From IMG/VR virus record IMGVR_UViG_2744054709_000002, positions 11,719 through 75,718 of that record: a stretch of DNA of 64,000 nt; one strand, given 5' to 3'. This document shows positions 3,264 to 11,924 of the stretch, in pieces. The number at the start of each line of letters is the position of its first letter. Position 1 is the first letter of the stretch. The position numbers and the translations under genes were made by a program. The notes under the pieces are model-generated. The model worked only from the letters and a program-made list of their open reading frames with translations. It was not told the DNA's origin and searched no databases. The DNA is from a virus (lineage: Duplodnaviria > Caudoviricetes).

Positions 3264-3541
3264 ATCTTCCTGCCGATCCGGACGCACATGGATGGTCGAT
3301 AACGCGGCACGTCTGTGCCGTCTGCCAAGGACGCATGCTTCAGCGGGGAGAGGAACTGCGCTGCTCGGGATGCGACCGCCGGGCACGGGGAAAAGTCTCG
3401 GCCCTGTGTGGCTGCGGGATGCGCGTAGGCAAGGACCGGCCATTTATATGCATGCCCAATCCACGGAAATCGGCTGCTGACCCGGTTGAAATTGTGATCG
3501 GCTACCGGCCGGAAAAATCGGAAATTCCCAGAAATGTCTGA
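3260..3541 (+). CDS. Cys-rich Zn-finger protein
   Basis: ATGA overlap; CAVC, CSGC, CGCG. Confidence 0.7.
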   Translation: MNLPADPDAHGWSITRHVCAVCQGRMLQRGEELRCSGCDRRARGKVSALCGCGMRVGKDRPFICMPNPRKSAADPVEIVIGYRPEKSEIPRNV

Positions 3542-4067
3542 CGACGAGGAATTTGAGGCCTTTTCGGCTGCCCCTGAGACTGAAGACAGTCCGCTGGGCG
3601 TGATGACACGCCTGATTGACACCGAGGGGATGTTTTCCTTCCTGAAAACCGGTGAAGTCCGGATTGCCGTGTTCATGAGGCATTTTCCGAAGGAAAAGCA
3701 GGGACGGATCGTATTGGGCGAACTGGCATTGCCACGGTTCCAGGGGGGGCTTGCCCGCCTTGGTTCATGGCTTCTGCAGCGCGCAACGTGGTTTCAGGGA
3801 CCGGATTACATCCTGATGATCGACCAGGACTGGTGGGATGGCGCACGTCCGGAAGCACAGGAAGCACTGGTCTTCCACGAACTGATGCACGCAGAGCATG
3901 CCGTGGACAGGGATGGGGAACTGAAATTCGATGATGAAGGACGCCCGGTCTGGAGCCTGAAAGGCCATGATCTCGAAGAGTTCCGCGAGGTGGTCCGGCG
4001 ATATGGCGACTGGAGCGGAGAGATCGGAGCCTTCGTAGACGCCGCGCGGATCGGGGGCGTGACCTGA
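3534..4067 (+). CDS. putative phage metallopeptidase
   Basis: ALVFHELMH (HExxH) and HDLEEFREVVRRYG. Confidence 0.8.
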   Translation: MSDDEEFEAFSAAPETEDSPLGVMTRLIDTEGMFSFLKTGEVRIAVFMRHFPKEKQGRIVLGELALPRFQGGLARLGSWLLQRATWFQGPDYILMIDQDWWDGARPEAQEALVFHELMHAEHAVDRDGELKFDDEGRPVWSLKGHDLEEFREVVRRYGDWSGEIGAFVDAARIGGVT

Positions 4068-4705: not shown

Positions 4706-6783
4706 ACCTGCTGCAGCGTTCTCTCGACTGCCAGCTCATGATGCTGGAGGAAACTGCGGCACGGCTGGGCTATGGCGGGACGGGCTCGATCCCGGAGGCC
4801 ATGGGGTTTCTGGAGTGGTGCGAGGACCTGGCGGCAAAGGGGCTGAAAATTGACGGACGCCCTTTCCGCCTGGACAACCGGCCGGCCCTGCGCCCGATCT
4901 ACGATGCAATCCCGACCACCCGCCAGCAGGCCTATGGCAAGACTCTCGTGATCCAGAAGGCGACCCAGCTGGGCCTTACCGTGTGGGAAGTGCTGGCCGA
5001 CCTTTACATGGCCAAGAAATGGTCGCCGGTGAATATCGGGATGTTCCTGCCCGACCAGAACACGGCGGCGTTCAAGTCCGAACGACGGTTCATGCCGATC
5101 ATCCGGTCGTCGCCACAGCTGCTATCGGAACTGATCTATCGCTATGACGGCAAGGGCGGCCGGCAGAAGATCGGTGAAGGCAATGTCCTGACGCGCGAGA
5201 TCGCGGGGTCGCTCCTGATGTTCCTGTGGACGTCGGGCAAGGTCTCCACGGAATCCCGGCCCATGGATATCGTCAGTCTGGACGAAGTCCAGGGTATGAG
5301 CCTGGAGGAAATTGACAAGGTCGCAGCCCGAATGGGTGACAGCGACGTGCGTTTCAAGATGCTGCTGTCCACGGCGAACATGCCGGACGAGGATATCAAC
5401 AACTGGTACAAGCGTGGCACGCAGGAGGTGTGGCACACGCGATGTCCCGGTTGCGGGGCGCTGTCGGACCTGTCCGATCCCAACGGCATATTCCCGTCGC
5501 GCTCGATCGTTTTCAACAAGGGTCAGGTCCGCCCTGCCCCGCCATATCCCGGCGAAACGGCCCAGCACGCGCCGCCTGTTGATGATTATGTGTGGGTCTG
5601 CCCGGAGTGCCAGGGCTACATCCCCGACCCGCAATATGGTGACTATATTGCCCAGAATCCCGGTGCTGGAAATGATATCCGCTCATTCCTGCTGCCCCGG
5701 ACGATCAGCCCGAGGATGACCGCCCGGGAAATGTTCACCGATTTCGGGTTTGCATCGACAGGAGCGCAGAAACAGAGTTTCTTCAATCGCACGCTGGCGC
5801 GCCCCTATGTTGATCCAGACCAGATCCCAGTTTCCTACGAGGTCTGCCAGGCGGGCGTGGAGCGCGGACGTGCCGCTGGCGTGACATGGGAGGAAACGGG
5901 CAGCGGGACCTACATGGGGATCGACCAGATGGGGGGCTTTAACGCCGTCATCATCAAGAAGCGGCTGCCTGACAACCGGCAGGCGGTGATCCATGTGGAG
6001 GCTGTGTTCGACCTGTCCCCGTTTGACCGGTGTGCTGATCTGATGCGGCAGTACGGGGTTGAGGTCTGTGTCGTCGAACAGCTGCCGAATTTCAACGATG
6101 CGCGCAAATTCGCCAACCGCTTCCCCGGCCGCGTGTTCCTGTGCACCGGCTATCAGGACATGGGCGATGAATCCATGCACTGGGGGGACAGCCTGTCGCG
6201 GTCGGAGCGTATGACCAGCGAGGAAGAACGGACGCGCTACACAGTTCGCTTGGACCGATACAAATGCATGCAGACGTCCTTGTACCGCATTCGCGACGGT
6301 ATCTGCCTGTTTCCCGACCCCAACGGGCTGGAGCAGGAAGTCATCGAGAACGGCAGGAAGCGGCGCATCGCGATCCTCTACGACTGGGTTTTCCTGCATT
6401 TTTCCCGTACTGCCCTGGTCACGGTTGCAGATCCGGAAACAGGGAAGACACGGCGCACTGTCCAGAAGATCGGGCTGGACCCGCATTTCAGTTTTGCACT
6501 GATGCTATGTGATGCGGCATGGGCACGTGTGCAGGGCAATTCCACGTTCATCCTTCCTGATGCTGGATTGGCAGGCGTGGGTACCGCCCAGTCGCCGTCT
6601 CCGTCCGCAGCCCAGAACCTGACGTCGCGGCTGGCAGAAATGATGGGAAGCGCCCCGGAGGGTGCCTGCGGGAAATGCCGGTATTTCGGAGGGGGCACCT
6701 GTTCGGAACGGGATCTGCGCGTTGGTGCGCTGGACCCGGGTTGCGTGTTCTACGAGCCCGCTGCGGACGACGTGACATCGTGA
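4702..6783 (+). CDS. terL: terminase large subunit, GpA-like
   Basis: KATQLGLT Walker A, SLDEV Walker B, CxxC insert, MGIDQ nuclease motif, DPHFSFA. Confidence 0.9.
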   Translation: MNLLQRSLDCQLMMLEETAARLGYGGTGSIPEAMGFLEWCEDLAAKGLKIDGRPFRLDNRPALRPIYDAIPTTRQQAYGKTLVIQKATQLGLTVWEVLADLYMAKKWSPVNIGMFLPDQNTAAFKSERRFMPIIRSSPQLLSELIYRYDGKGGRQKIGEGNVLTREIAGSLLMFLWTSGKVSTESRPMDIVSLDEVQGMSLEEIDKVAARMGDSDVRFKMLLSTANMPDEDINNWYKRGTQEVWHTRCPGCGALSDLSDPNGIFPSRSIVFNKGQVRPAPPYPGETAQHAPPVDDYVWVCPECQGYIPDPQYGDYIAQNPGAGNDIRSFLLPRTISPRMTAREMFTDFGFASTGAQKQSFFNRTLARPYVDPDQIPVSYEVCQAGVERGRAAGVTWEETGSGTYMGIDQMGGFNAVIIKKRLPDNRQAVIHVEAVFDLSPFDRCADLMRQYGVEVCVVEQLPNFNDARKFANRFPGRVFLCTGYQDMGDESMHWGDSLSRSERMTSEEERTRYTVRLDRYKCMQTSLYRIRDGICLFPDPNGLEQEVIENGRKRRIAILYDWVFLHFSRTALVTVADPETGKTRRTVQKIGLDPHFSFALMLCDAAWARVQGNSTFILPDAGLAGVGTAQSPSPSAAQNLTSRLAEMMGSAPEGACGKCRYFGGGTCSERDLRVGALDPGCVFYEPAADDVTS

Positions 6784-6792
6784 TGCGACACT
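6778..6792 (+). promoter_or_regulatory. putative late promoter (variant), leaderless portal mRNA
   Basis: TCGTGATG-C-GACACT, then 7 nt, then ATG. Confidence 0.6.
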
Positions 6793-6799
6793 GAACGGC

Positions 6800-8479
6800 A
6801 TGAACGAAACCGTGCGACAGTTGGCCCTCGGCCTCGATACCCCGCCTGACGAACGTTTCGACGCGTCCGTGGAGATGCACAAGGCGTATCGCCCGCTGGC
6901 GTCCCAACTGATCCCGCCTGAAAACCTGCGCCCTGTGATTGACTACATCAACAATGGGTTGATGGACGCTGAGTTCTACAAGGCAACCCCGCGGCAGATC
7001 ATCCGGCTGGGCGACGGCAATGACACGGGCGGCCGCATGCGGTCAGTGCGGCTGGACCCCCAGAAGATATTTTCCCAGGCGCGGTATTTTGAGAGGCCGT
7101 CCGCGCTGGATTTCACCGGACTGCGCGCGATCGTGGCGCAGACGCCGATCCTCAGCGCCATCGTGCGCCGGCGTGTGCGCCAGGTCAGTAGGTTTGCCCA
7201 GATCAGCGAGGATGGCGGCCTCGGGTTTGAAATCCGGCACAAGGATCGCAACCATCTGCTCAAGGGGACGGAGGCCGATGCCGCCGCGCATCTGGCGCGG
7301 TTTTTCCTCAACTGCGGCTGGGAGTTCAATCCACGCCGGCGCAAGCTGATGCACCGCGACAATTTCCGCCAGTTCATGGCCAAGTCGGTGCGGGATTCCC
7401 TGACGCTGGATTCATGCCCCATCGAGACGGAGATGCGTCGGAACGCTGAACTGGGGCTTGACGGGTTCTACGCCGTGGACGGTGCCACGATCCGGCTGTG
7501 TTCCGAGCAGCATTACGAGGGGGATGACCCGATTTATGCCCTGCAGGTCATCGATGGGCGCATCGGGACCACCTACACGATTGATCAGTTGATCTACGAG
7601 GTTCGCAATCCGCGCACCGACGTTGACACGGGTGGATACGGTGAGGCGGAGCCGGAGGTGATGATCAAGGTCATCACGGGCATCCTGAACGCCATGTCCT
7701 ACAACAATGCCGGGTTCGACGAAAATTCCATCCCCAAGGGCATCCTGCAGCTGATCGGCGATTACGGGCAGGAAGATATCGCGGCGTTCAAGCGATACTG
7801 GAACGCCATGGTCAAGGGGACGGCCAACACCTGGGCCCTTCCTGTCATGGTGGCGAAGGACGCGCAGAGCAAGGTCGCGTTCGAGAAGTTCGACACCGAC
7901 TTCAACGAGATGCATTTCGCCAAATGGATGACGTTCCTGACATCCATCGCATGCGCGATCTACGGCATGGCACCGGACGAGATCAATTTCGAGAGTTTCT
8001 CCGCGTCAAAGTCCTCCCTGTCTGGCAGCGATACGGAGGCCAAGCTGGAGAACGGGCAGGACACGGGGCTGCTGCCACTGCTTGCGTTCTATGAGGCTAC
8101 GTTCAGCGATTTCATCGTGTCGGCCTTCAACGATGACTGGTGTTTCCGCTTCGTCGGGCTGGATAGCGAGGATGCCGGGGCCAAGGCGAAGGAAGACGAG
8201 TCTGTCATGACGGTCAACGAACTGCGTGGCCGCCGCGGTGACGCGCCCTTCCCTGACCCCGTGCTGGGCAACGCGCCGCTCAATCCCAGCCTGATCCAGC
8301 CATGGATGGAACTGAACAAACAGCGGTTCGCAGGCGCAGGTACCGACGATGATCAGCGCCCGGGCGATCCCGGCCGTCCGTCCGATCCTCCTCCCGATGG
8401 TGACGCGGATACGCCTCTAGAAACCGATGATCCCGAGCCGGTCAGGAAATCCCTGGCCACTGTCTACACGGTCGAATAG
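6800..8479 (+). CDS. portal protein
   Basis: Follows terL; YNNAGFDENSIPKGIL, IACAIYGMAPDEINF and MTVNELR are typical of portals. Confidence 0.9.
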   Translation: MNETVRQLALGLDTPPDERFDASVEMHKAYRPLASQLIPPENLRPVIDYINNGLMDAEFYKATPRQIIRLGDGNDTGGRMRSVRLDPQKIFSQARYFERPSALDFTGLRAIVAQTPILSAIVRRRVRQVSRFAQISEDGGLGFEIRHKDRNHLLKGTEADAAAHLARFFLNCGWEFNPRRRKLMHRDNFRQFMAKSVRDSLTLDSCPIETEMRRNAELGLDGFYAVDGATIRLCSEQHYEGDDPIYALQVIDGRIGTTYTIDQLIYEVRNPRTDVDTGGYGEAEPEVMIKVITGILNAMSYNNAGFDENSIPKGILQLIGDYGQEDIAAFKRYWNAMVKGTANTWALPVMVAKDAQSKVAFEKFDTDFNEMHFAKWMTFLTSIACAIYGMAPDEINFESFSASKSSLSGSDTEAKLENGQDTGLLPLLAFYEATFSDFIVSAFNDDWCFRFVGLDSEDAGAKAKEDESVMTVNELRGRRGDAPFPDPVLGNAPLNPSLIQPWMELNKQRFAGAGTDDDQRPGDPGRPSDPPPDGDADTPLETDDPEPVRKSLATVYTVE

Positions 8480-8503
8480 GCCCGATAACAGGACTTCCCG
8501 ACG

Positions 8504-9682
8504 GTGAGAATTTACATCCTTCTAAAAGCCACGATCGCGAACCGGCCCGGCATGGCGCTGGTTTACGGGACGGATCGCCGCGGGCGGCGCATGCGGCGCT
8601 GGAAGCGGGTCGCCGCGCCGGATGCTCCCCCCGCCCATGTCCATGCCGCAGCCGAAAAGGAAGGTGGCGTGCATCGCTCCATTCCGCCGGAACATTTCAA
8701 CGCGGTGGATTTCGCAGCGCCCTATAACGATCATGCTGTGTCGTTGCCGGAGGTCTATCACGGATTTCCGGCCGATACGCAGGCCCGGCTGGATCAGTCT
8801 GCTGACGAACTTGCCAAGAAGCCGACGACGGTTGAACTGTTCTGCCATGACGGTGTCTACACGCCTGAGCGTGCAGCACTTCATGAGAGGATACTGGCCG
8901 ATTATACGTCGGCAGAGCGCCTATCCAAGGCTTTCCCTGCCGAAGGGGAAGCGCCGACCTTCATTTTCCTTGGCGGCCGTGGTGGTTCCGGGAAATCCGC
9001 GTTGCGGGGTATCGCATATGGCGACGACGCGCTTGTCATCGATGCAGACGGCATCAAGGCGCGCCTGCCTGGTTATGACGGGACGAACGCACATCTCTAT
9101 CATGAGGAATCGTCAGACATCGCAGAAGAATTGATGCGGCGTCTGAAGGCGATCAAAGCCAATATCGTTTATGATTCCACCATGCGCACGACAGCCAGGG
9201 CTGTAGCCCTTGCAAAGTCGATGAAAGCGGATCATTATCGGCTGGAAGTGCATTACATGTTTCTGCCGCGGCTTGATGCAGCACGTCGCGCCGTGAGCAG
9301 ATATATCGAAGACGGGCGGCTGGTCCCTCCTTCCGTGGTGCTCGGAAACCTGACAAACGAAGCAAGTTTTGATGCCGTGAAAGACCTGGCGGACAGCTGG
9401 TCATTTCGCAGCAATCTGGTGGCGCGGGGCAGTCCGCCTGCCCTGATATCGGAGAAGAAAGATGACCGTACTGAAAAATCCCGAAACGTGGGATTATCCG
9501 GACACGGTGGACATAGCCAGGGAGAGCCGCGTGAAGCTGTCTCCGGAGGCAGAGACGGCCTGGGAGGAACGCGTCAGGAAGGCGCGGCAGATGCGGGCGG
9601 AAGCCGACGCGACCGCCTCACGAAAGGACTGATCCCTTCAGCCCGTATTCTGGTGCTGCTTCCTGACTGTCGGCGTGCATGA
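8504..9682 (+). CDS. zeta-toxin-family P-loop kinase
   Basis: FLGGRGGSGKS, IDADGIK, HEESS, NIVYDSTM, SRYIEDGRLVP. Confidence 0.85.
   Translation: MRIYILLKATIANRPGMALVYGTDRRGRRMRRWKRVAAPDAPPAHVHAAAEKEGGVHRSIPPEHFNAVDFAAPYNDHAVSLPEVYHGFPADTQARLDQSADELAKKPTTVELFCHDGVYTPERAALHERILADYTSAERLSKAFPAEGEAPTFIFLGGRGGSGKSALRGIAYGDDALVIDADGIKARLPGYDGTNAHLYHEESSDIAEELMRRLKAIKANIVYDSTMRTTARAVALAKSMKADHYRLEVHYMFLPRLDAARRAVSRYIEDGRLVPPSVVLGNLTNEASFDAVKDLADSWSFRSNLVARGSPPALISEKKDDRTEKSRNVGLSGHGGHSQGEPREAVSGGRDGLGGTRQEGAADAGGSRRDRLTKGLIPSARILVLLPDCRRA
9462..9632 (+). CDS. 56-aa gene nested in the zeta gene (candidate antitoxin)
   Basis: GGAG RBS; MTVLKNPETWDYPDTVDIARESRVKLSPEAETAWEERVRKARQMRAEADATASRKD in the +1 frame, beneath a low-complexity zeta tail. 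Confidence 0.6.
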   Translation: MTVLKNPETWDYPDTVDIARESRVKLSPEAETAWEERVRKARQMRAEADATASRKD

Positions 9683-10890
9683 CCAGGCGCGCGGAAATTC
9701 TGGTCGATATTGGAGGTATAGCGTCATGCCAGTGCGATGATGCGCTGGAAAGCCTGTTCAAGGCCGCGACGGAAACGCCAGCCCGGAACCCCACCATGCT
9801 GTGGGATGACGTTCCCAATCCGATCATCCGCAGGCTGGTCGAACTGTTCACCCAGAAATATCAGGCGGTCCTGAAGCAACTGCAGGACCGCTTTGGCCAG
9901 ATCCTTACCGGGAAGGGCACAGGCTCGCTCCAGAAGGCGCTATCCCCTGGATGGGGACGGTGGACGCCTGAACAGGAGCAGGAGGCCCGGGCGCATCTGG
10001 AGCGGCATCCTCCCGAAGATTATACCCTTGATGACTGGATGCTGCTGGTCGAGCTGCTGATGCAGGAATACCTGCCGCATGACGTGGCGGTGGACTGGGG
10101 GGACTGGCTGACGGTACGGGCTACGCTCGCGGGAAAGGCGCAGGCTGCGTTCGAGGCGCGGGGCATCCGGGATGCCGAGAGCATCGCGAAAATGGCGGAA
10201 TACATGCCCACGGGGTTCGGGGCGGTTCCGCGCAAGATCCTCACGCCAGTCGAGATGAAGACCATCGAGATTGCGCGGGCACGCGCGGCCGAGAACATCT
10301 CCGCCGTCACCGACGTGGCGCGCCACAAGATGAAGAACCTGATCATCCAGCACATGGAAGCGCAGATGTTCGGGATGAAGCAGGGTCAGTTCACCGCACT
10401 GCGGCAGAGCCTTTTTGATGCGTTCGGGGAACTGAACCGAGATTTCCGGCGCATTGCAGTGACCGAGGCGGGGGAGGCCTGCAACCAGGGCCTGATCGCC
10501 ACCCTCTCGCCCGGGCAGCGGGTCAAGCGCGTGGAAGCTTATCGCGGCGCGTGCGCGTTCTGCAAATCGATCAACGGGAAAATCTTTACCGTCGTTGCGC
10601 CCGACGCGCCGGAGCAGAATGGCCAGACGCAGGTCTGGGTCGGGAAAACCAATATCGGGCGCTCTGCCGCTTCGCGGCGTCGCACTGACGAAGGGCTGAT
10701 GCCCCGCAGCGAAAACGAGATGTGGTGGCCAGCCGCCGGCGTCCAGCACCCGAACTGCCGGGGCAGCTGGGTCACGGTTACGGATCCGGGACCTGATGTT
10801 TCCCCTGAATTCGTCAACTGGATGGACGGAATCCTGCGCAAGCATAGTCTCAAGCCAGTCGGCAGACCAAGCGGGCAGCAACCAACGTAG
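9679..10890 (+). CDS. head morphogenesis protein, MuF/SPP1 gp7-like
   Basis: RIAVTE, CAFC and HPNCRGSW motifs; near portal. Confidence 0.85.
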   Translation: MTRRAEILVDIGGIASCQCDDALESLFKAATETPARNPTMLWDDVPNPIIRRLVELFTQKYQAVLKQLQDRFGQILTGKGTGSLQKALSPGWGRWTPEQEQEARAHLERHPPEDYTLDDWMLLVELLMQEYLPHDVAVDWGDWLTVRATLAGKAQAAFEARGIRDAESIAKMAEYMPTGFGAVPRKILTPVEMKTIEIARARAAENISAVTDVARHKMKNLIIQHMEAQMFGMKQGQFTALRQSLFDAFGELNRDFRRIAVTEAGEACNQGLIATLSPGQRVKRVEAYRGACAFCKSINGKIFTVVAPDAPEQNGQTQVWVGKTNIGRSAASRRRTDEGLMPRSENEMWWPAAGVQHPNCRGSWVTVTDPGPDVSPEFVNWMDGILRKHSLKPVGRPSGQQPT

Positions 10891-10895
10891 CCAGA

Positions 10896-10913
10896 TTGCA
10901 TGCATGCATGCAA
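10896..10913. repeat. (WGCW)n palindrome, candidate centromere site
   Basis: TTGCATGCATGCATGCAA; 24 bp identical to the site upstream of parA. Confidence 0.7.
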
Positions 10914-10925
10914 AACACGCGTCTG

Positions 10926-10940
10926 TCGTGACGGCATGAT
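10926..10940 (+). promoter_or_regulatory. putative late promoter
   Basis: TCGTGACG-G-CATGAT. Confidence 0.7.
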
Positions 10941-10967
10941 GGGACATCATCATGCAGCGGAGCGATT

Positions 10968-11327
10968 ATGCGCGGTTTTCTGACTTTCCTTGCGGTTCTG
11001 GCCTGCCCTGTGCTTGCCCTGGCGGCGAGCGTGGGGCCGTCCAGTCCCATGATGCCCGAGGCTCCGGCGATCATGGCCGCAGCCACGTGGCAGGAGATTT
11101 TCCCGGCTGGCACCCAAAATCATGGCGGCGTGTTCCAGAACACCTCTGCGGCGGTGGAGTATATCTGTCTGACGGGATGCGCGGGGGGCGATCTTGGTTC
11201 CACAGCGATTGCCGTCTATCCGGCATCGGCGACGAACCCCGGCATATTCCGGTGGGGGCCAGTCAGCGGCCCCATTACGGTCTATGGCGCGAAAGCAGGC
11301 CAGACCTACAGCGCGTTTGGAGGCTGA
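10968..11327 (+). CDS. small secreted protein
   Basis: GGAG RBS; Sec-type signal MRGFLTFLAVLACPVLALA. Confidence 0.7.
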   Translation: MRGFLTFLAVLACPVLALAASVGPSSPMMPEAPAIMAAATWQEIFPAGTQNHGGVFQNTSAAVEYICLTGCAGGDLGSTAIAVYPASATNPGIFRWGPVSGPITVYGAKAGQTYSAFGG

Positions 11328-11372: not shown

Positions 11373-11924
11373 ATGCTGATCCTCCTCAAAGCCATGCCGC
11401 AGCATCCCCTGTCATGCTTCCATGAACCCACGGAGGGGCAGAAGCGGGCCGGAAATTATCGTAAGACAAAAACCGATTTCGGAGGCTTGCCGATCACCAT
11501 CGAGAACGAGGCCGGAAGTGTCCGGCGCGGTCGCGATCATGGCGGTAAGGAATGGGCCACCACCATGACGTGCCATTACGGATATATCCGGGGCACCGTG
11601 GGGGCGGACGGCGACCATTATGACGTGTTCATCGGCCCGGACGAAAAGTCACGGCGTGTCTGGATCATCCAGACCATGGCGCCGCCTGATTTTCGCAAGA
11701 AGGACGAGGAAAAGGCGATGCTCGGCTTTGGCAGCGAAAGCGAGGCCCGGGCCAGCTTCCTGCGTCATTACGACAATCCTGCCTTCCTGGGGGCAATCCG
11801 CGAGATGCCGTTCGACATCTTCAAGCGACAGGTCATGGCGACCAAGGAGAACGGAGGAAAACTGCGGGGTCCGAAACCGGTGAGAAAATGCTTTATCGTG
11901 CTTGGGCGTGAGAGCCCGGCATGA
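11373..11924 (+). CDS. phage inorganic-pyrophosphatase-like (InPase) protein
   Basis: AGNYRK, ITIENEAGS, HYGYIRGTVGADGDHYDVFIG, DEEKAMLGF. Confidence 0.85.
   Translation: MLILLKAMPQHPLSCFHEPTEGQKRAGNYRKTKTDFGGLPITIENEAGSVRRGRDHGGKEWATTMTCHYGYIRGTVGADGDHYDVFIGPDEKSRRVWIIQTMAPPDFRKKDEEKAMLGFGSESEARASFLRHYDNPAFLGAIREMPFDIFKRQVMATKENGGKLRGPKPVRKCFIVLGRESPA

Follow-up and report, generated by a model that had tools for sequence, protein, structure and literature searches.

In the 64,000 nucleotides (nt) of caudoviricete DNA analysed here, called the window (positions 11,719 to 75,718 of IMG/VR record IMGVR_UViG_2744054709_000002), a gene for a zeta-toxin-like P-loop kinase contains, out of frame and wholly within it, a second and much smaller gene. 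Sequence comparisons make us confident that this nested open reading frame (ORF), 9462-9632, is a real and conserved coding gene, and its distribution among related phages makes it very probable that the product of 56 amino acids (aa) is a partner specific to the zeta kinase. That this partner inhibits the kinase is suggested by analogy with known toxin loci, and we would place even odds on it. To the explanation as a whole, in which a toxin kinase of the phage head operon would carry the gene of its own inhibitor in another frame, we give a probability of about 0.5.

The nested ORF had been pointed out in an earlier note on this DNA, made from the letters alone, as a hidden gene in the kinase tail with its own ribosome-binding site, codons rich in G+C at the third position and a helical-looking product. 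Its coordinates, frame and ATG start are as given there. The ribosome-binding site is the GGAG at 9451-9454, 7 nt before the ATG at 9462, and is made by the Ser-Glu codons of the LISE conserved in the kinase; just upstream of the nested ORF, the +1 frame is closed by the TGA at 9444-9446. Within the overlap, the G+C fraction at the third codon position is 0.77 in the nested frame versus 0.50 in the zeta frame. As for the product, an AlphaFold2 (AF2) model made from a 47-row alignment, with a mean predicted local distance difference test (pLDDT) score of 85.9, predicts an extended N-terminal part and a single helix at residues 28-55, which agrees with the helical look of the peptide. The extended part carries the acidic and aromatic motif NPETWDYPD, the long helix that follows is basic, and residues D11 and D14 of the small protein are nearly invariant in 47 family members.

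Taken alone, such an ORF does not rise above chance. The window has 53 comparable out-of-frame ORFs (ATG start, same strand, at least 56 aa, within ORFs of at least 200 aa), with a Shine-Dalgarno-like tetramer in 4 of the 53. The nested ORF stands above this background because it is conserved in relatives. A profile built from 22 free-standing small genes recognized the +1 frame of 8 of the 15 nested loci at E<0.01 and of 14 of the 15 at E<1 (Z=1194), and in each of the other five frames it recognized none of the 15 (best E 7.4); this is the frame-specific conservation in homologs that the earlier note had named as a check on the gene. The window peptide is the most divergent, with E=0.18 against the free-standing-only profile. 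With a family profile from which the window and its near-copy L115 had been removed, the window ORF (9447-9629) ranked first of the 1194 ORFs in the window with E=3.4e-4, the next best being 1.6. The codon composition points to the same frame: in the kinase domain, the G+C fraction by codon position is about 0.65/0.40/0.80, and in the overlap the same shape moves to the +1 frame in all 15 loci.

Measured against shuffles, pairwise similarity gave a mean z of 4.56 for the small frame, 1.43 for the zeta frame and 0.76 for the third frame. A z above 3 was reached in 46, 12 and 7, respectively, of 78 pairs, which are not independent of each other, and the small frame was the best in 64 of them. 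Changes silent in the small frame only occurred at 0.204 per possible change, versus 0.134 for those silent in the zeta frame only (odds ratio 1.66, p=6e-4) and 0.149 for those silent in neither, on an alignment guided by the small frame, which favours that frame. Per-position differences on the codon alignment are saturated (0.549/0.513/0.592 per site) and make no decision between frames. The start signals are kept as well, with an ATG in 15/15 nested loci and a GGAG 3-10 nt before it in 10, at exactly 7 nt in 7 of these. Because the free-gene profile, the G+C periodicity, the similarity scores and the substitution classes all favour the +1 frame, the nested frame is read here as coding.

The opposite reading, that the ORF is a chance open frame in GC-rich DNA and has no product, would be at home with the 53 comparable ORFs, with the E of only 0.18 for the window peptide and with the indecisive per-position counts. 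We hold it to be extremely improbable, as the frame, the ATG and the motif are kept across kinases only 39-48% identical, and as the ORF is homologous to free-standing genes, with the five control frames blank and both the G+C periodicity and the z-scores on the side of the +1 frame. Hardly more credible is that ribosomes reach the +1 frame by frameshifting from zeta, which would yield, in place of a separate protein, another form of the kinase that ends in the small domain. A natural in-frame fusion of kinase and small domain exists in locus L091 and would suit this idea; against it, the TGA at 9444-9446 means that a shift would have to occur within 15 nt, the nested loci have neither a conserved sequence nor a common slippery site from this stop to the ATG, and the ATG and GGAG recur as described above. 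Nor is the nested ORF a sequencing or assembly artefact, since independent sources agree on it: metagenome contigs X16 and X18 have no variant in 9353-9660 and no indel across the overlap (X19 is without coverage of 9384-9623), and a second genome, L115, has the identical two-frame structure. The exact peptide is in fact already public as an unnamed 56-aa entry without description, and the contigs behind it are all short, at 558-7948 bases; gene callers overlook the nested gene in loci with a whole zeta gene.

The relatives of the nested gene form a family of small proteins. Zeta-kinase loci from three sources (IMG/VR, GTDB species genomes and the bacterial family of the host) came to 209, 150 with a kinase match and 93 of these distinct; the small gene was scored as present when it lay -30 to +400 nt from the end of the kinase domain on the same strand. 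By this measure it is present at 51 of the 93 distinct loci, as a separate gene at 39 and wholly nested at 12, and in 51/51 it lies inside or after the kinase gene, never upstream. All 12 wholly nested genes are in the +1 frame. The separate ones are in +2 (35), +1 (3) or frame 0 (1), and in many relatives they begin at or just past the zeta stop codon. The kinase is cut by a contig end in 5 of the 93 loci. Three further nested cases bring the nested set to 15, namely L071 (counted among the cut kinases), L115 (kinase cut by the contig start) and L117 (zeta frame broken). In kinases only 39-48% identical to that of the window, the +1 frame after LISE again has an ATG ORF of 50-65 codons, and the nested ORFs have in common a motif that is roughly [ED]-x-[YFLMW]-D-x-x-D-(C/S)-R-P, then P-x-x-[IL]-x-K.

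Among 1.84 billion proteins, 179 representative clusters (50% identity) belong to the family at E<=1e-3, and nearly all are 46-80 aa long. Pfam matches none of 47 members at E<=0.01. PHROG has no family for these proteins; only 1 of the 47 members matched phrog_13846 (0.0031), and the window peptide met phrog_3058 at a non-significant E=0.042. Longer, fused relatives were sought in a set of 5.8 billion proteins with none at E<=0.001, a search that is weak evidence, and ESM Atlas look-ups gave best values of 0.75 for the window peptide and 0.78 for that of L011, too low for use. On a kinase-domain tree of 66 rows made by a quick method, the nested state changes six times, of which the starred branches force only one, and the window row, a long branch, pairs with another long branch, which makes its placement unsure. 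On this tree, nesting may have arisen once or several times, and either the nested or the separate form may be the earlier one.

We then asked what the small gene is tied to. A set of loci was chosen only by homology of the head-module gene directly downstream of the kinase gene (the best 80 of 295 IMG/VR loci, 72 of them distinct). Seventeen of the 72 have both zeta and the small gene, 2 zeta only, 1 the small gene only and 52 neither (p=2e-13), and in one of the two zeta-only loci the kinase is cut at the contig end. With full flanks (at least 5 kb upstream and at least 3 kb downstream), the corresponding numbers are 14, 1, 0 and 25 (p=6e-10); both sets of counts ignore shared ancestry. Since the small gene is present in 14 of 15 full-flank relatives with zeta and absent from all 25 without, we consider it tied to the kinase. 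A narrow DNA-pattern scan of IMG/VR for Px[EQ]RPDLYD agrees with this picture, all 13 confirmed matches being on contigs with zeta.

One could imagine instead that the small gene is a general gene of the head module that merely adjoins zeta, without any functional tie. Indeed, it lies in the head-morphogenesis operon, between the portal gene and the head gene, and the co-occurrence could reflect two genes inherited as one block. We find this very unlikely, as the small gene is missing from 25/25 distinct zeta-less relatives with full flanks and present in 14/15 with zeta. Moreover, it follows zeta rather than the head gene when the two are apart: it keeps its place next to zeta in L068, where the head gene is on the upstream side, and in L005, L008 and L021, where that gene is about 1 kb away. 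It does so too in portal-fused and polyvalent settings, where the kinase is fused to a portal protein (L002) or continues into an InPase (L033).

Among the relatives, the kinase is found joined to a portal domain (L002), an InPase (L033) or an SNF2 helicase (L069). L002 (2330-4792) and L017 (2336-4801) each have one 820-aa ORF in which a zeta kinase makes up the C-terminal part and a complete portal domain comes before it, and in both the small gene comes next; of these two, only L002 was scanned with Pfam, where the portal domain matched Phage_portal_3 at 1.3e-82. L073 had been considered as a MuF-zeta fusion and was dropped, Pfam finding only Zeta_toxin in it. In L057 (3602-3754, minus strand), a gene of the small family abuts the zeta stop from the opposite strand, in a convergent arrangement that was seen only in this case. 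In L134 (reverse-complement 3417-3560), a clear family member (..KPTEENSDGMDSRPLTGPVELDEVPEFLRERM..) and the head gene are on opposite strands; no zeta kinase is present in the 9.3 kb in view, and on the upstream side of the head gene the contig breaks off after 1.2 kb.

The zeta frame across the overlap behaves differently. The tail of the kinase had been described as rich in G, R and S, and over residues 320-376 these make up 24.6%, 14.0% and 8.8%, respectively, compared with 6.2%, 7.3% and 6.9% in the kinase core. In the AF2 model, residues 332-381 and 385-392 have a pLDDT under 50. As the earlier note also said, the zeta frame is still open past the nested gene, and it ends in ...LTKGLIPSARILVLLPDCRRA. 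It is open across the small gene in 14 of 15 nested loci, versus 7 of 32 by chance in free-standing small genes. What it leads to is a short motif, which we searched for as [LIVMF]-x-K-[ASGCT] plus, 2-13 residues further on, a run of four hydrophobic residues. In the zeta frame, this motif comes just after the stop of the small gene in 11 of the 15 nested loci, and the remaining four come close to it; no other forward frame has it in any of the 15. Homologs without a nested gene have the same motif at their C-terminus. Two Acetobacter-type relatives (P0002 and P0008), at 42-44% identity, also have a conserved tail. The kinase of the window also begins with a motif that resembles it, and kinase homologs start with the same IPLLFIKS.IANRPG.AL. 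In polyvalent relatives, the same motif (e.g. LRKAFDGDARIIFLKAQIPSGAAGDLF) joins the kinase to the next domain, and the motif also comes just after the nested genes of L001, L033 and L103. To judge from these patterns, the motifs look like a module junction and are perhaps a protease site; a role in processing or packaging may be envisaged.

The earlier note had proposed that an immunity gene was overprinted on the toxin so that the toxin could keep a C-terminal packaging tag. The part of this proposal that holds is the zeta frame being kept open to reach a conserved C-terminal motif. Its direction has to be reversed: because the small gene has free-standing homologs, shows the coding G+C periodicity and has a mean z of 4.56 versus 1.43, it is the constrained frame of the overlap, on which the toxin tail rides as a predicted disordered and poorly conserved linker. 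The zeta frame is needed too, as an open frame leading to the C-terminal motif and nothing more. Two base changes in the overlap, T9463C (ATG to ACG) and G9490A (Trp10 to stop), hit the small gene and are silent in zeta, which keeps its Asp and Val there. As to how the embedding works, in loci like that of the window the zeta frame has no stop at the end of the kinase domain and continues across the small gene, shifted by one base, until it arrives at the junction motif.

The scenario that we propose for the role of the small protein is the following. Translation of the protein probably begins at a GGAG-N7-ATG of its own within the zeta mRNA, which would be the same late mRNA, and each translation of the kinase message would then also yield the small protein. 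The small protein would bind the kinase and hold it inactive in the producing cell, and would thereby be an immunity or antitoxin-like partner. The kinase, lying between junction motifs, would be a cargo enzyme that is packaged in the virion and processed. The cargo idea is put forward because relatives have the kinase fused to portal, InPase and SNF2 helicase, and because zeta-toxin-like kinases fused to MuF domains are reported in phages, with delivery together with the DNA proposed for them, in the accessible part of Iyer 2017 (PMC5512222). We speculate further, with more reserve than for inhibition as such, that an inhibitor encoded within the frame of the toxin lets each ribosome-loaded toxin message also make the antidote, the linker then being the out-of-frame reading of the antidote gene.

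The inhibitor idea is drawn from the analogies with MuF toxins and arc1, from the intact small ORFs beside decayed kinases at L117 and L116 and from the zeta-less L134. In the accessible text of Jamet 2017 (PMC5576092), a small ORF follows the MuF toxin gene in 89.4% of 191 cases, which is the usual place of an immunity gene, and in that of Triplett 2016 (PMC4938570), the arc1 antitoxin gene is downstream of the zeta-like avrRxo1 and is intact beside avrRxo1 pseudogenes. Among our loci, the small ORF is intact beside two of three decayed zeta copies. At L117 (about 730-1861), a transposase gene of the insertion-sequence type replaces the kinase up to residue 258 and a TAG interrupts the zeta tail; the nested ORF of 58 aa is intact. 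At L116 (minus strand, 1404-2100), the kinase has lost its P-loop half and a small ORF of 80 aa is intact. The third copy, L111 (G001:C64, minus strand, about 1467-1831), is a second and decayed copy of the kinase end and small gene in the same genome as L081, the bacterial contig that carries the window DNA; its kinase pieces are in different frames, and the small frame is still recognisable (NNPEMWDYPDMVDVTKESRMKISPE...), with CTG in place of the ATG and the stop lost.

A partner specific to zeta need not be an inhibitor. It could instead be a chaperone or adaptor for folding, prohead loading or processing, or a subunit that goes along with the kinase and activates it or determines its specificity. 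Such a helper draws on the same zeta-linkage evidence as an inhibitor does. The in-frame fusion in L091 (and, by eye, in L069 and L092) is more what one expects of an accessory domain acting in cis than of an immunity protein, and the fusions of the kinase to portal, InPase and SNF2 helicase are typical of packaged polyvalent cargo, as described in the accessible part of PMC5512222. However, the small ORF has been kept in 2/3 decayed zeta copies and in one locus with no zeta in view, which fits protection better than assistance, though indirectly. On balance a helper of this kind seems unlikely to us.

Several observations weigh against the inhibitor explanation or limit it. By the present profile, 37 of the 93 distinct zeta loci have no small gene, which means either divergence beyond detection or a kinase that can do without it. 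In L091 the small domain follows the kinase and the junction motif within one reading frame (hhalign E=8.4e-11), an arrangement that L069 and L092 resemble by eye only, and such an in-frame fusion to the kinase is unusual for an immunity protein. Searches of Pfam, NCBIfam and known folds gave the nested peptide no likeness to epsilon, PezA, Arc1 or another known antitoxin; NCBIfam in particular finds no antitoxin match for the two members tested, and the fold search of the peptide model has no PDB match at E<=0.001 (best 5.0). Expression is a further point. The stretch is contained in four RNA-library runs of one study, and one contig of X1, 31,482 letters long and with a word depth of 300, extends across 8504-10890. 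This contig may come from an active prophage or from phage DNA in the library, and contigs give neither strand nor level and cannot show translation. A promoter scan of 6500-11000 gave one site, versus 1.1 expected. Because the nested gene lies in a late head operon and has no promoter-like site of its own, it may not be expressed in lysogens.

The locus itself belongs to a virus record of 75,718 bases that carries direct terminal repeats, and the same DNA is found at 100% identity, as a prophage, in a contig of Novacetimonas hansenii JCM 7643 (L081). The host gene of the overlap is a sound member of the zeta/PezT family by profile, motif and fold. Pfam Zeta_toxin (PF06414) matches residues 144-285 at 7.5e-22 (78.2 bits, cut-off 22.3), and a profile of 65 kinase homologs finds zeta (1gvn_B, 7.3e-13) and PezT (2p5t_B, 1.6e-6) in the PDB. 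The Walker A sequence GGRGGSGKS (G157-S165), D180 and D182 are invariant in 65/65 kinase sequences. In the profile alignment to PDB zeta, the D-x-D stretch faces VIDNDTFK, and we take the Asp of D-x-D to be catalytic. The best fold matches of the AF2 kinase model in the PDB are 1gvn_B (4.4e-9), 3q8x and 2p5t, which are zeta and PezT, together with 4z8t_A (AvrRxo1-ORF1, 3.4e-7). A weak NCBIfam match to XopAJ/AvrRxo1 (1e-05, 24.9 bits) is far under the cut-off of 300. The earlier note had also found no epsilon-type gene beside the kinase. This stands, the neighbours being a portal gene upstream and the head gene downstream, and Pfam Epsilon_antitox (PF08998) has no match anywhere in the 75,718-base record.

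The features of the locus are collected in Table 1. The downstream head gene has a weak match to PHROG 581, a minor head protein (E=0.025), and no Pfam match, MuF included. A single-protein search found no relatives of it, whereas an alignment-based search found homologs at 37-52% identity in 295 IMG/VR stretches. Two observations concern the kinase gene outside the overlap. A 170-aa ATG ORF at 8622-9134, in another frame of the kinase domain, bears no sign beyond that of a chance open frame in GC-rich DNA, and at 8587-8635, in the N-terminal region of the kinase, contigs from food-fermentation and wine metagenomes differ from the window at 8 sites within 50 bases, whereas those of them that reach over 9353-9660 are identical to it there.

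Table 1. Features at and around the nested gene, in positions of the window
Feature	Position	Strand	Remarks
Portal protein gene	6800..8479	+	next gene upstream of the kinase; Pfam Phage_portal 8.2e-11; E as low as 7.3e-33 with PHROG portal families
Zeta-toxin-like P-loop kinase gene	8504..9682	+	GTG start, 392 aa; contains the nested gene; Pfam Zeta_toxin
N-terminal junction motif of the kinase, (V/M)RIYILLKATIANRPG	8504..8551	+	homologs start with the same motif; resembles the C-terminal motif
Folded kinase core, zeta residues ~56-331	8669..9496	+	AF2 pLDDT mostly >90
LISE codons CTGATATCGGAG, end of the kinase domain	9443..9454	+	contain the +1-frame TGA and the GGAG Shine-Dalgarno
Nested small gene, 56 aa	9462..9632	+	+1 frame relative to zeta; ATG start, stop TGA 9630-9632; wholly inside 8504-9682
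Zeta-frame linker, residues 332-381	9497..9646	+	overlaps the small gene; G/R/S-rich; predicted disordered
C-terminal junction motif of zeta, LTKGLIPSARILVLL	9617..9661	+	reached only by the zeta frame reading through the small gene
Cys-rich head-module gene ("MuF-like" is a working name only)	9679..10890	+	downstream of the kinase; ATG overlaps the zeta stop (ATGA)

It is rare that an embedded protein-coding gene of a bacterium or phage has any evidence beyond the open frame itself. In the present case the homologs are ordinary separate genes in related phages, and therefore the embedded and the unembedded state can be compared directly. The nested gene also brings to light a new family of small proteins, which probably accompanies a clade of phage head-module zeta kinases. 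If the peptide is an inhibitor, it would explain how phages can carry a toxin kinase directed at the cell wall or at nicotinamide adenine dinucleotide (NAD) among their structural genes without a recognisable antitoxin, and annotators would have a reason to search inside toxin genes for partners.

We know of no protein toxin-antitoxin pair in which the antitoxin is embedded in the ORF of the toxin, and a literature search by title and start of abstract, limited in its terms and coverage, found no paper that deals with a partner gene lying within the gene of a zeta toxin. The nearest systems by kinase are epsilon/zeta and PezA/PezT, which share with the present locus a zeta-family P-loop kinase, recognised by Pfam, PDB sequence and fold, and a conserved small partner next to it. 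Epsilon has a helical-bundle fold, whereas the present peptide is modelled as one long helix. The partner lies downstream of the toxin gene or inside it rather than upstream, and 0/47 family members match Epsilon_antitox. By profile, fold and gene order, the nested peptide is thus not an epsilon/PezA protein. The setting of the kinase differs as well, as it stands in a phage head operon with junction motifs and has relatives fused to portal and polyvalent domains. AvrRxo1-Arc1 is another pair of a zeta-like kinase, here an NAD kinase, and a small antitoxin; arc1 is immediately downstream of the kinase gene, and the present kinase model matches AvrRxo1-ORF1. Unlike Arc1, which has 98 aa, the present peptide has 56, and it has no PDB match at E<=0.001, though the PDB has AvrRxo1-ORF2 entries; the context is a phage and not a secreted effector.

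The MuF toxins offer a likeness in genomic position. As set out in the accessible part of PMC5576092, they place a toxin-type domain in the portal/minor-head region of temperate phages, followed by a small ORF without known domain. In the same way, a small ORF of less than 150 aa comes immediately after the toxin domain in our loci, as a separate gene in 39 and nested in 12 of the 93. The present kinase differs from them in being a gene of its own upstream of the head gene and not a C-terminal extension of MuF. Zeta is not mentioned (0 occurrences) in the accessible text of Jamet 2017 (PMC5576092), and neither this text nor that of Iyer 2017 (PMC5512222) describes the present small family or an embedded partner.

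The closest architectural parallel is lambda Rz/Rz1, in which a small gene likewise lies wholly inside a larger phage gene of the same strand, out of frame and with its own start. As in such pairs, the inner gene is here contained within the outer ORF and both frames are maintained by selection; the proteins and their function are unrelated to lysis. Spanin pairs occur in embedded, overlapped and separated architectures, with the overlapped part of the outer protein enriched in disorder-promoting residues, and loss of the stop codon of the upstream gene was proposed as a route to embedding, although no spanin family was described with members in both the embedded and another class (Kongari 2018, PMC6139136, accessible part of the text). 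In contrast, one homologous family spans the separate (39), embedded (12-15) and in-frame fused (L091) forms here. If the small protein is indeed such an embedded antidote, these forms would also make up a natural series for embedding through stop-codon loss, which the spanin families did not provide.

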